DNA of 33,470 nt from a virus (taxonomy: Duplodnaviria; Caudoviricetes), in the IMG/VR virus record IMGVR_UViG_3300025467_000044, positions 1-33,470 of that record. The stretch is one strand, 5' to 3'. Each line of letters begins with the position of its first letter. The stretch's first letter is position 1. A program made the translations under genes and the position numbers. The notes under the pieces are model-generated. The model made no database searches. It saw only the letters and a program-made list of their open reading frames with translations, and had not been told where the DNA came from. This document shows positions 1,464-17,312 of the stretch, piece by piece.

Positions 1464-1531
1464 CAGAGTGTGAGGCGCAAGTGATTTGCCCAGCAAGCAC
1501 AAGGCCTTAGCAATTAAGTGGAGATTGAGAC

Positions 1532-1789
1532 ATGATAGCAATTCACACGAAATATATAGCGCCAACAAATACCAAGGGTGCGCGGATTAAAGCTTACACC
1601 CACAGTAGATTCTCAGTCGTGGTTTCTTATCCTTACGAAAAATCAACTGAGATGGCGCACTATGAAGCCGTGAAAGCATTGGCGGAAAAATACCATCTCT
1701 CATGGTCTATAGATGCCATGTGTTTTGGTGATAGTGCTGATGGCAAGGGATATACCTTTTGTTTTAATCAATCAAAAATCGCAGCTTAA
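1532..1789 (+). CDS. early hypothetical protein
   Basis: 85 aa ORF with RBS GGAGATTGAGAC-ATG; N-terminus IHTKYIAPTNTKGARIKA resembles small phage early proteins. Confidence 0.8.
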   Translation: MIAIHTKYIAPTNTKGARIKAYTHSRFSVVVSYPYEKSTEMAHYEAVKALAEKYHLSWSIDAMCFGDSADGKGYTFCFNQSKIAA

Positions 1790-1802
1790 TGGAGATTGAG
1801 AC

Positions 1803-2015
1803 ATGGAGAAAATTGACGAACATTTGAAATATCCTCGCTTAGACGATAAAGGTCAGCCTGATGAACGTTATGAGGTAAACTATGAGTGGACGGGTTATTC
1901 AATCCCCATGTTAGTGTTGCGCTTTTGCGGTGAATCCATAGGTTGCCCAAAAGGTCTTACAACTGCGCGAAGGATTGCCGAGGCGCATTACAATGAAATG
2001 ATTGGCCTTAATTGA
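1803..2015 (+). CDS. early hypothetical protein
   Basis: 70 aa ORF with the same RBS motif; its stop codon is the first codon of hairpin repeat 1. Confidence 0.75.
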   Translation: MEKIDEHLKYPRLDDKGQPDERYEVNYEWTGYSIPMLVLRFCGESIGCPKGLTTARRIAEAHYNEMIGLN

Positions 2016-2077
2016 TTGCAGCTTCAAGCACCATAGCAATATGGTGTTTGTGGAAGCAATCAAGCTTCATAATATAG
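2013..2077 (+). repeat. structured intergenic repeat, copy 1 (RNA hairpin)
   Basis: TGATTGC/GCAATCA outer stem; 11 bp inner stem CAAGCACCATA-GCAA-TATGGTGTTTG. Confidence 0.85.
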
Positions 2078-2089
2078 CGAATTAACATC

Positions 2090-2323
2090 ATGCAATATCA
2101 ACTTATTATTCCACCAATAGCAGAGACACAGATAACGGGTTTTGCAATGGCTGCTGAAAAAATTATTGGCAACTCTCATTGGCGCTTAGAGATATGGCGC
2201 GGTGAAAGCTTGCCTCGTGCTTATAAAGACGGGAAACCGCAAGAGAGCATCAAGGTGTGCAGTAAGTCTGTTATAAATCTTAGCAATGCGATTGTGTTGT
2301 TTTATAATCAAACAAAAAACTGA
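2090..2323 (+). CDS. early hypothetical protein
   Basis: 77 aa ORF co-oriented within the operon; weak RBS. Confidence 0.55.
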   Translation: MQYQLIIPPIAETQITGFAMAAEKIIGNSHWRLEIWRGESLPRAYKDGKPQESIKVCSKSVINLSNAIVLFYNQTKN

Positions 2324-2335
2324 AGGAGTATTGTT

Positions 2336-2620
2336 ATGCTTACATTTAATATCGAATTAACTGACACTTTTGGTGGTGTGGCGAATTATGCGTGGGTTAA
2401 GCGTGCTAGTGTTGTTATGCCTGAATTGACACACTATGGCTATGACGGCTCGCAAGGGTATCATAAAGCAAATAAGAAAATGGAACGTGAGTTAATCAAG
2501 AAGGCCAAGAAAACCATAGGCCTATGCGGAAGGCATATTAAAGAAACATGGGGAGACACAATAGTCCTGCGTTATCCTTCTTCTAATGTAGTATGCTTTA
2601 TAGAGATTGATCCTGCCTAG
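2336..2620 (+). CDS. early hypothetical protein
   Basis: 94 aa, AAGGAG RBS, IELTDTFGGVANYAWVKR motif typical of small phage early proteins. Confidence 0.8.
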   Translation: MLTFNIELTDTFGGVANYAWVKRASVVMPELTHYGYDGSQGYHKANKKMERELIKKAKKTIGLCGRHIKETWGDTIVLRYPSSNVVCFIEIDPA

Positions 2621-2649
2621 TGTTTCCTTACCAGCGATTAGGTGGAAAA

Positions 2650-2712
2650 ATTGCAGCTTCAATCCCATCATTCGTGGTGGGATTGTGGAAGCAATCAAGC
2701 TTCACAATATAG
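2650..2712 (+). repeat. structured intergenic repeat, copy 2 (covaried stem, UUCG loop)
   Basis: Same flanks as copy 1, but the inner stem is CAATCCCATCA-TTCG-TGGTGGGATTG. Confidence 0.85.
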
Positions 2713-2723
2713 GGGATTGAGAC

Positions 2724-2969
2724 ATGATTATGATAAACGAAACGCTAATAAATCAAGCAAATAACGCATTCGGGAGAACTTTTTATCTTATCCACGCAAA
2801 AGCGGCGAACGTACCCGCTGGCTCTGGTACTAGATGGGATGACGAGTGCTTCAAGGTTATTTCATTAGATCGCAATGGCACGCGCCATGGGCGGGCATAC
2901 AAAACACTTGATGAAGCGCAAACAGACTTTGAAGCTTGCACAACACCGATTGTCGCGATTGAAGCTTAA
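2724..2969 (+). CDS. early hypothetical protein
   Basis: 81 aa ORF with RBS GGGGATTGAGAC-ATG. Confidence 0.75.
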   Translation: MIMINETLINQANNAFGRTFYLIHAKAANVPAGSGTRWDDECFKVISLDRNGTRHGRAYKTLDEAQTDFEACTTPIVAIEA

Positions 2970-2982
2970 TGGAGATTGAGAC

Positions 2983-3255
2983 ATGAGACTGATTATTGTT
3001 AATCGCGCTTGCGGATACATCTTCGCCGATATAATCGCAGAGACACCTATGCAAGCAATCAAAAAAATGGTGGAAGATATGGACATTCGATCCAAATATT
3101 ACCAGACGACAGAGCATGACAATAACGCTCAATATGATGTCTATCAAGTAGATGAAGACTTCCCGCAAGTAGATGACGGCCAAGATCAAAATCTAATTGA
3201 AGCACTAGAAAGATCGGGCAAGTATATCGCAAGCATAGCAATGGAAGAGGCATGA
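2983..3255 (+). CDS. early hypothetical acidic protein
   Basis: 90 aa, D/E-rich, RBS GGAGATTGAGAC-ATG; its stop codon begins repeat copy 3. Confidence 0.75.
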   Translation: MRLIIVNRACGYIFADIIAETPMQAIKKMVEDMDIRSKYYQTTEHDNNAQYDVYQVDEDFPQVDDGQDQNLIEALERSGKYIASIAMEEA

Positions 3256-3317
3256 TTGCAGTTTCAAGCACCATAGCAATATGGTGCTTGTGGAAGTAAT
3301 TAAGCTTCACAATATAG
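3253..3317 (+). repeat. structured intergenic repeat, copy 3
   Basis: Perfect 11 bp inner stem CAAGCACCATA-GCAA-TATGGTGCTTG; outer stem retained through G-U pairs. Confidence 0.85.
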
Positions 3318-3328
3318 GAGATTGAAGT

Positions 3329-3592
3329 ATGGCATACAAAATTATTATTTCTCGCCAATCCGCCGTTTTGTATTTACAAAAAGAATACGGGACGCAACGC
3401 GCTAATGTTATGCTTAAAAACATGCAAAAAGCAAAGGAAGGTTTTTGGTTTTTACCAGATATTTTTTTTGGAAAGCTTAAAACCAAAAAAAATGCCGTTG
3501 CATTAGCAGAAAGAGTAAAAATGAACGTTTTTTATCAACAAGGGAAACTTGGCAAAAAACTTGCTGACCCTTGTGTTTATCTAATAGATTAA
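3329..3592 (+). CDS. early hypothetical basic protein
   Basis: 87 aa, K-rich, RBS GGAGATTGAAGT-ATG. Confidence 0.7.
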   Translation: MAYKIIISRQSAVLYLQKEYGTQRANVMLKNMQKAKEGFWFLPDIFFGKLKTKKNAVALAERVKMNVFYQQGKLGKKLADPCVYLID

Positions 3593-3612: not shown

Positions 3613-3644
3613 ACCCCTTAGTTTTTGGCTAGGGGTTTTTTTTT
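3613..3644 (+). terminator. rho-independent terminator of the early operon
   Basis: CCCCTTAG...CTAGGGG hairpin followed by a 9 T run. Confidence 0.75.
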
Positions 3645-3674
3645 GCCCGCTTTCCAATCCAAGCTATAGCCCGT

Positions 3675-6130: not shown

Positions 6131-6141
6131 ATCTCAATCTC

Positions 6142-16670: not shown

Positions 16671-16745
16671 GAGGGAACGGGTGGTTGCGTAATAGACTCG
16701 CGTGGGTCCATGGTTAGCCCACACCTTAATAATATGGAGATTGAT

Positions 16746-17312
16746 ATGACTAAACCAATGAGTGTTCAAGAATTAAATGTCGTAGATAAAAGAATGATCG
16801 AATTGTGGAACAGTGGTTTCACAGGTCAGATGCTTGCCGAGTATTTTGGTAAAACACGAAATGCAATTTTAGGTCGCCTATCAAGGCTAAGAGATGCTGG
16901 CCACAACGTATCAGTAAAAGGCCAGTTAAACCCGAACAAAAATAAGCAAGAAAAACCAAAGCTTTATAATACAACCAAAGAAAGGGCGATCACAAGACGG
17001 GTTAAAGATGCTATTAAGAAGCTTGACAGTAGGAAGAAAAAAGACCTTACGCATGAAGATGATTTGATTCGAGTTGATAATTTTGACAGGTGCAAAGATA
17101 CCCGTGTGCGTATTTATGACTTAAAAAGTCATCACTGCCGATATATAGTAGACAATAGAAACCCAGATAAGTCTTGGTATTGCGGTCATCCCAAGGAAGT
17201 TAATAGCTATTGCGGGTATCATGCCAAACTTTGCTACTTACCGCCAGACCGACAACGATCAAAACAATCAGCAAGAAAATCCTCATTTGCCTATGGAAGA
17301 ACGTCACGATGA
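16746..17312 (+). CDS. gcrA: GcrA-like transcriptional regulator
   Basis: LWNSG.T...LA...G.TRNAILGRLSRL N-domain; C-domain IYDLKSHHCRYIV...YCG......SYCGYH...Y. Confidence 0.85.
   Translation: MTKPMSVQELNVVDKRMIELWNSGFTGQMLAEYFGKTRNAILGRLSRLRDAGHNVSVKGQLNPNKNKQEKPKLYNTTKERAITRRVKDAIKKLDSRKKKDLTHEDDLIRVDNFDRCKDTRVRIYDLKSHHCRYIVDNRNPDKSWYCGHPKEVNSYCGYHAKLCYLPPDRQRSKQSARKSSFAYGRTSR

Follow-up and report, generated by a model that had tools for sequence, protein, structure and literature searches.

The virus record comes from an uncultured phage in freshwater metagenome runs; it is 58% complete and was analysed over its whole 33.5 kb (33,470 nucleotides), here called the window. The window encodes a small terminase, primase, helicase, Erf-like protein, exonuclease and podovirus-like structural proteins. 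Seven short plus-strand ORFs (1532–3592) run opposite to the neighbouring genes and end at a terminator-like hairpin (Table 1). By its gene content this operon is presumably early. No promoter was established: promoter-like matches in the region number 17 against a chance expectation of 11.2 ± 3.0, and they do not lie at equivalent places across three 65-nt intergenic repeats within the operon. Each repeat can adopt one of two folds, a long hairpin (P1, a small internal loop and a variable stem P2) or a short rival hairpin P3 (GAAGC-N4–8-GCTTC) just ahead of the next start, whose formation excludes P1.

Table 1. Features of the plus-strand operon and its intergenic repeats (window positions).
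Feature	Position	Strand	Remarks
85-aa ORF	1532..1789	+	phrog_3199, function unknown
70-aa ORF	1803..2015	+	stop codon forms nt 1-3 of copy 1
Copy 1	2013..2077	+	outer stem 2013-2019/2056-2062, 5x5 loop, P2 2025-2050
Copy 1 P3	2053-2057/2064-2068	+	predicted cut between 2052 and 2053
77-aa ORF	2090..2323	+	after copy 1; no family, no clear Shine-Dalgarno
94-aa ORF	2336..2620	+	phrog_22729; DNA-level similarity to Stenotrophomonas phage gene
Spacer	2624..2647	+	moves together with copy 2
Copy 2	2648..2712	+	5-bp outer stem, replaced P2 2660-2685
Copy 2 P3	2688-2692/2699-2703	+	predicted cut between 2687 and 2688
81-aa ORF	2724..2969	+	after copy 2; no family
90-aa ORF	2983..3255	+	stop codon forms nt 1-3 of copy 3
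Copy 3	3253..3317	+	outer stem with two G-U pairs, P2 3265-3290
Copy 3 P3	3293-3297/3304-3308	+	one G-U; predicted cut between 3292 and 3293
87-aa ORF	3329..3592	+	after copy 3; no family
Start repeat GGAGATTGAGACATG, hairpin-less	1520, 1791, 2971 (within 1520..2985)	+	variants at 2712, 3317
Terminator-like hairpin and T run	3615..3645	+	closes the plus-strand unit

A homologue of the cell-cycle regulator GcrA (16710–17309; PF07750, E = 1e-15) suggests that the host is probably an alphaproteobacterium, the range of GcrA being the alphaproteobacteria. This gene is preceded by the start repeat GGAGATTGA (16736 region), which also stands, without a hairpin, before leftward small genes at 6134, 6661 and 6898 (minus strand). 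Upstream of the operon, two tandem DUF551-family paralogues (160–540) have a 49-nt repeat in common; a related contig (L001) has more copies of this family, yet is without one of the window's two. The long non-coding stretch at 620–1500 contains short repeats (GAACAGAAC/GTGAAC; pairs 785/830 and 931/1034), is 94% conserved in L001 and is a candidate origin, packaging or promoter region. At 992–1007 there is a perfect 16-bp palindrome, TGTTTCACGTGAAACA (chance expectation 0.06 even allowing two mismatches), which matches the bacterial parS consensus; it is kept in the related contigs L001, L003 and L007 and present in Stenotrophomonas phage BUCT548 (L458:1245). The window ORFs scanned include no ParB, so the phage may recruit that of its host.

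The initial annotation had recognized three copies of the repeat, setting the start of copy 2 at 2650 instead of 2648; identities in register are 100, 74 and 92% for copies 1, 2 and 3, and no fourth full copy occurs in the 33.5-kb window. On the sense strand the copies fold at −27.1, −23.4 and −22.4 kcal/mol (z = −5.98, −4.90 and −3.98; 0 of 200 shuffles as good); antisense folds are weaker (−18.7, −19.0 and −19.2 kcal/mol), and the G–U pairs are, as annotated, valid on the sense RNA only. The 11-bp inner stem is present in the copies, as is the 5 × 5 internal loop, in which two central pairs can close. The proposed outer stem TGATTGC/GCAATCA holds in general, but in copy 2 it shrinks to 5 bp (ATTGC/GCAAT). 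Copy 2 does have a replaced inner stem and a UUCG loop in place of GCAA, although its closing pair is A–U and not C–G; the extra-stable form of this tetraloop is C(UUCG)G. AGCTTCA flanks both sides in copies 1 and 2 (2020/2063 and 2655/2698). The alternative fold that these flanks had suggested exists through the downstream GCTTC, but pairing of GAAGC with the upstream GCTTC is 7–9 kcal/mol worse than the minimum free energy (MFE) fold. A slipped bulge–helix–bulge fold of the window copies was rejected (7–9 kcal/mol above the MFE, pair probability 0.0). Copies 1 and 3 begin on the upstream TGA stop; copy 2 is without a stop-codon anchor, the preceding ORF ending at 2620. The tail had been described as leading to the next ribosome-binding site, which does not hold for copy 1, where there is no clear Shine–Dalgarno sequence (2077–2092).

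Relatives of the phage differ in gene content precisely in this region. L004 is the same genome (99.98%). L001 is missing 1536–2965 and is joined at GGAGATTGAGACATG; L003 has the copy 2 block (2624–2727) after the 85-aa gene, followed by a different 70-aa gene and a hairpin-less tail; L007 has the 90-aa gene without any copy of the element. Contigs from four other runs are joined at 1777–2007, 2070–2968, 2711–2971, 3241–1997, 3253–3329 and 3264–3624/3632, most of these joints being seen in a single contig each; at 3253–3329 (one contig) the same two genes are joined without the element. The arrangement of these joints indicates that genes are exchanged at the elements and at the start repeat, and that a given junction can do without the element; GGAGATTGAGACATG is a second, hairpin-less class of cassette joint.

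Pattern scans of viral contigs, followed by a descriptor without a tail requirement, place the repeats in a widespread phage RNA family of about 90 distinct copies from some 33 groups of viral contigs. Across 315 sequences (1.06 Mb) the descriptor has 104 distinct matches; a shuffled control has 2. GCTTC lies 4–8 nt past GAAGC in 90 of the 104; the other 14 are seven reverse-strand shadows of real copies, two apparent chance matches and five copies whose tails are changed or lie further downstream. Since the patterns that fetched most loci contained the tail, conservation of the core letters is in part a product of the search; 20 of 34 matches outside the fetch patterns carry it exactly. Type A (84 copies) pairs TGTTTC with GAAGCA and measures about 10 bp, a 3 × 2 loop of purine–purine and pyrimidine–pyrimidine mismatches and a variable P2 of 7–14 bp. 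Type B, the window's slipped subtype (six copies with tail), has a 3-nt insertion that shifts the register; a type A model detects the window copies only partially (13.7–18.2 bits). Both types are treated as one family because they share arrays (L085, L130).

Whole-record searches of five genomes (G001–G005) found 14, 9, 19, 5 and 5 copies, in each case clustered on a single strand; the carriers include podovirus-like phages and one provirus that encodes an integrase and a tail sheath. The arrays of G001, G003 and G005 (L442, L448, L437) include an ATPase (phrog_1297) and phrog_1314 as a pair among the element-separated genes. Between element copies in a small-gene array of G005 (L036:2645–2752, minus strand) lies a match to Rfam Atu_At1, a Rhizobiales sRNA, at 83.4 bits (gathering 60). 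At seven loci (L075, L094, L135, L147, L154, L159, L178) the element is followed by A-rich leaders without a Shine–Dalgarno sequence. Such leaders are Bacteroidota-like, suggesting hosts outside the Proteobacteria for these members.

Searching GenBank phages by blastn with the region or with three single elements gave no match on the element, and model R1, to which the window's subtype is only partially detectable, found none in ten protein-level relatives in GenBank. A pattern search of three further phage records returned unstructured-looking matches only. Among 120 loci listed from 23 of 64 parts of the prokaryotic genomes three passed a loosened descriptor, none of them clear (L324 and L330 score 27.9 and 31.5 bits); among 114 loci listed from 4 of 64 parts of a metagenome scan, in which chance matches are abundant, there is at least one clear subtype B copy. 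The cores that we assume for hammerhead, hairpin and twister, and the SRP loop, do not fit the element. Rfam 15 has no match to the window at gathering score, and at E up to 10 the element in two sets of 8 and 12 loci gives weak overlaps only, far below gathering. The Rfam comparison proposed in the initial annotation thus yields no family match and leaves the novelty standing. A published description was not found. The catalogue of viral candidate RNAs in PMC10690425 may hold one: its accessible supplementary files contain no match to motif words or contig identifiers, and its alignments may still include the family. As far as Rfam 15 and the literature search reach, the suggestion of an undescribed cis-RNA motif holds, and on these comparisons we regard the element as a real, uncatalogued two-state phage RNA.

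Covariation in the homologues is present for both folds. In an alignment of the 74 of 84 type A copies with a common junction, 90.9% of cells are paired, with 258 two-sided changes against 91.6 ± 8.4 after shuffling and 53–108 after sliding; the copies were selected for a stem, so that this count is no probability, and because they are related the changes are not independent events. For P3, core variants were taken from 97 distinct model matches. Core and tail changes compensate each other in GAAAC/GTTTC (L448:16908), GGAGC/GCTCC (L448:16616) and GAAGT/ACTTC (L442:16390), and L442 and L077 have a three-way compensated change, GTTCA/TGAGC/GCTCA. A scan for this last variant gave seven structured matches among 120, of which two repeat L077 and L442, one is clear and new (L692), one doubtful (L696) and three apparently due to chance. 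P3 is kept despite hairpins inserted in its loop (L116:278, L116:4290, L106:4744); it is absent from L444:14553 and L189:1959 and weak in L448:8473.

P3 has only 5 bp (−4.7 to −6.6 kcal/mol). In 86 of 90 fragments that start at the G of GAAGC its probability is above 0.5, against 3 of 90 uncut RNAs; this calculation used the core GAAGC throughout and slightly overrates copies with GAAGT, but with its actual sequence the copy 3 fragment still forms P3 (−4.7 kcal/mol). For window copies 2 and 3 the two folds differ little in energy when the RNA is uncut (P3 probability 0.21 and 0.27). An extension of P3 5′ of the G is paired in only 8 of 90 copies.

The scoring of RNase III registers used the pair counts from 85 in vivo Escherichia coli double-cleavage sites (Table S4 of PMC6212723), with strand orientation inferred from its text. 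When the score is confined to paired columns, the best register in 74 of 84 type A copies is a cut of the 3′ strand immediately before GAAGC, and P3 begins at this very base. Among the columns that the search left free, this register is the only one with a positive mean (+0.65; others −0.67 or lower), its score being reached by 0 of 2000 column permutations (28 of 84 copies used). When mismatches are counted it is best in only 44 of 84. Independently of the search patterns, position D in P2 is A–U or U–A in 84 of 90 copies (60 U–A, 24 A–U) and in 30 of 33 groups; neighbouring pairs are so in 5–40 of 90, and the stems are otherwise GC-rich. According to PMC1540722, A–U or U–A is required at proximal-box position 2 (pb2), the strongest determinant. 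All three window copies have A–U or U–A at position D, in the inner box, and the outer box is mismatched in their subtype. Of the pairs expected of a substrate at the two flanking positions, G–C at pb1 and A–U at pb3, the first occurs at the inner pb1 in 61 of 90 copies; the inner pb3 is A–U in the window copies and C–G in 66 of 90.

The fourth box position departs from the E. coli rule, which admits neither G–C nor C–G there: the window copies have C–G at the inner pb4, and type A copies all have C–G at the outer pb4, with an inner pb4 mismatch as in the T7 site R1.1. PMC1540722 describes C–G at pb4 as a catalytic antideterminant that lowers E. coli cleavage 7–14-fold, 7-fold being the figure for the pair of the window copies, and the data of PMC6212723 have it in 7/85 and 15/85 in vivo E. 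coli sites. The window hairpins, with 7 bp (copy 2: 5), the 5 × 5 loop and 11 bp, span about the two helical turns expected of a substrate, as do the type A hairpins. Counting pairs only, the predicted register is the best of 13 in the window copies (scores −0.2, 2.1 and 0.8); with mismatches counted it no longer is. By the inner box alone it is the top register of copy 2 and the third-best of copies 1 and 3, with scores of 0.8–1.3 vs 2.7–4.9 for T7, and in L047, L085 and L130 it lies outside the top three. As a control, the T7 inner-box score peaks at three of the five cut positions, is second at one and misses the last. The window's subtype thus fits the E. coli rules only modestly; the rules are those of E. 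coli, and the host here is probably an alphaproteobacterium.

We consider it probable that the element is an intergenic processing site for host RNase III, from which the downstream piece refolds a 5′-terminal hairpin. This reading is preferred because the predicted cut, derived from enzyme preferences, coincides with the first base of P3, derived from covariation; the initial annotation had noted the alternative fold, though neither its start at this point nor its covariation in relatives. Of the functions proposed in the initial annotation, processing or stability is thereby supported by sequence tests (RNase III register, A–U at pb2 and T7-like geometry), and nothing was found in support of antitermination. 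Starting from the repeat, its two covarying and mutually exclusive helices and their stop–start position, the course of events would be as follows. Host RNA polymerase would make a single long message, in which P2 and P1 fold to about two helical turns with mismatches at the scissile positions. RNase III would nick the 3′ strand only, once, directly 5′ of GAAGC; according to PMC1540722, internal loops confine cleavage to one strand, leaving protective 3′ hairpins, and single cuts at such loops leave a 2–3-nt overhang. The tail GCUUC would then displace the 5′ arm of the weaker P1, which pairs through a U–G wobble or, in the window's subtype, a mismatched 5 × 5 loop, and P3 would form without an unpaired 5′ base. 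The upstream mRNA would retain P2 (2–3-nt overhang) as a barrier to 3′ exonucleases, and the 5′ monophosphate of the downstream mRNA would be base-paired and hidden from RNase E/J. On base-paired 5′-P ends RNase E is more than 10-fold slower in vitro (PMC3997798). In many members P3 may also free the Shine–Dalgarno sequence from weak pairing with the tail. Gene exchange at the repeats, as crossover points, would be a by-product.

Several known systems offer parts of this scheme. The ompA/papA 5′-terminal stem-loops (PMC3997798) are stabilizers in which, as proposed for P3, a base-paired 5′ end hinders RNase E; P3 differs in that the uncut primary transcript does not allow it, so that it would arise only once the RNA has been cut. 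The T4-type phage PeSL cassettes, as described in PMC2839356, are likewise repeated intergenic modules with small non-essential genes that are gained and lost, but they hold a sigma-70 promoter and a terminator stem-loop; the element has neither and has two exclusive folds.

The processed mRNA of Bacillus phage SP82 is of RNase III origin. Its new 5′ end is stabilized, in a manner that depends on the ribosome-binding site according to PMC7509114, whereas a refolded hairpin is proposed here.

The RNase III sites of the T7 early transcript are R0.3, R0.5, R1, R1.1 (the site studied in PMC1540722) and R1.3. Like the element, they are intergenic hairpins between short genes, start at or near a stop codon and have an upper stem of about 10–11 bp, an internal loop and a lower stem. 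The T7 intergenic hairpins (L450) and the window copies have in common C-AAG...CUU plus 3 nt before GA, and GCAA loops occur in both. The T7 sites belong to a different sequence family. The element has a dedicated covarying downstream partner, GCTTCA, whereas a comparable 5′ hairpin is predicted in one of five T7 products (R1.1). It is also present many times in one genome, with 19 copies at most, and its carriers include podovirus-like phages and a temperate provirus with a contractile tail; cleavage of the element is a prediction. The T7 hairpin, of 7 bp (L450:5888–5910), would lie one base from the 5′ end past the R1.1 cut, and by this folding prediction one T7 site may work in the same way. 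Judged from these likenesses, the element most likely works as the T7 R sites do, its pb4 pairs departing from the E. coli rule.

The main rival is a ribosome-gated switch without cleavage, because of the 75 copies whose upstream ORF was identified 61 have its stop at the base of P1 (−8, −9, −11 or −12 from the 5′ arm end). A terminating ribosome would melt the 5′ arm of P1, P3 would form and take the CUUC tail off the Shine–Dalgarno sequence, and translation of the next gene would be coupled. In 51 of 74 copies the start region does open more easily when P1 is absent (median 1.2 kcal/mol), but in the window's real context the gain is just 0.5, 0.5 and −0.2 kcal/mol. Copy 2 has no stop at its base, the A-rich leaders without a Shine–Dalgarno sequence keep the tail, T7 sites likewise begin at stop codons, and the A–U rule inside P2 is left unexplained; we think this switch rather unlikely.

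A long hairpin that RNase III binds and does not cut, or that another double-strand nuclease or a phage factor of similar preferences cuts, is distinctly unlikely. In E. coli, C–G at pb4 separates cleavage from binding (PMC1540722), and the outer-box mismatches of the window's subtype would suit such a reading. An uncut RNA could hardly make use of a covarying P3 whose first base lies right at the predicted scissile bond, and the window ORFs scanned (record 58% complete) encode no nuclease of the kind.

An element acting as DNA, whether a PeSL- or attC-like joint of cassette recombination or a palindromic operator GAAGC-N6-GCTTC, would suit the relatives that gain or lose genes exactly at the element or start repeat and the window's Erf-like annealing protein and exonuclease; we hold it to be very unlikely. 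The G–U pairs favour the sense strand, hairpin-less start repeats work equally as joints, no integrase was found among the window ORFs scanned (record 58% complete), and neither promoter nor U-tract lies inside the element. A dimeric operator was rejected: the half-site spacing is not fixed (4–8 nt, and longer where inserted hairpins are tolerated), and the variable P3 spacer therefore rules out a fixed operator. A reading as terminator was dropped as well, the copies containing no terminator-like site.

Most improbable is an RNA that modifies host RNA polymerase in the manner of put, for antitermination or pausing: a structured RNA repeated along a unit that is presumably early, transcribed by the host and closed by a terminator would suit it, but put is a single site after a promoter and the element occurs in up to 19 copies between consecutive genes, its two helices are mutually exclusive and the RNase III signature would go unexplained.

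RNase III processing with refolding may be part of a widespread phage RNA device, in which one event, an RNase III nick or a terminating ribosome, sets off a programmed strand displacement with three simultaneous effects: the products come free, the new 5′ end is capped and the ribosome-binding site of the next gene is turned on. This is possible, if doubtful. Were it true, it would mean ordered gene-by-gene activation of host-takeover arrays, with each gene and its element a portable expression cassette. RNase III cuts leave 5′-monophosphate ends, which usually speed decay, and even for model phages the stability of processed messages is not fully explained. The family, in which both folds covary and the cut site is predicted to the base, would be a compact natural answer; new here are the slipped subtype B and the RNase III register test. 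The 65-nt element is a candidate insulator for synthetic operons, and the family marks swappable small-gene arrays in uncultured phages.
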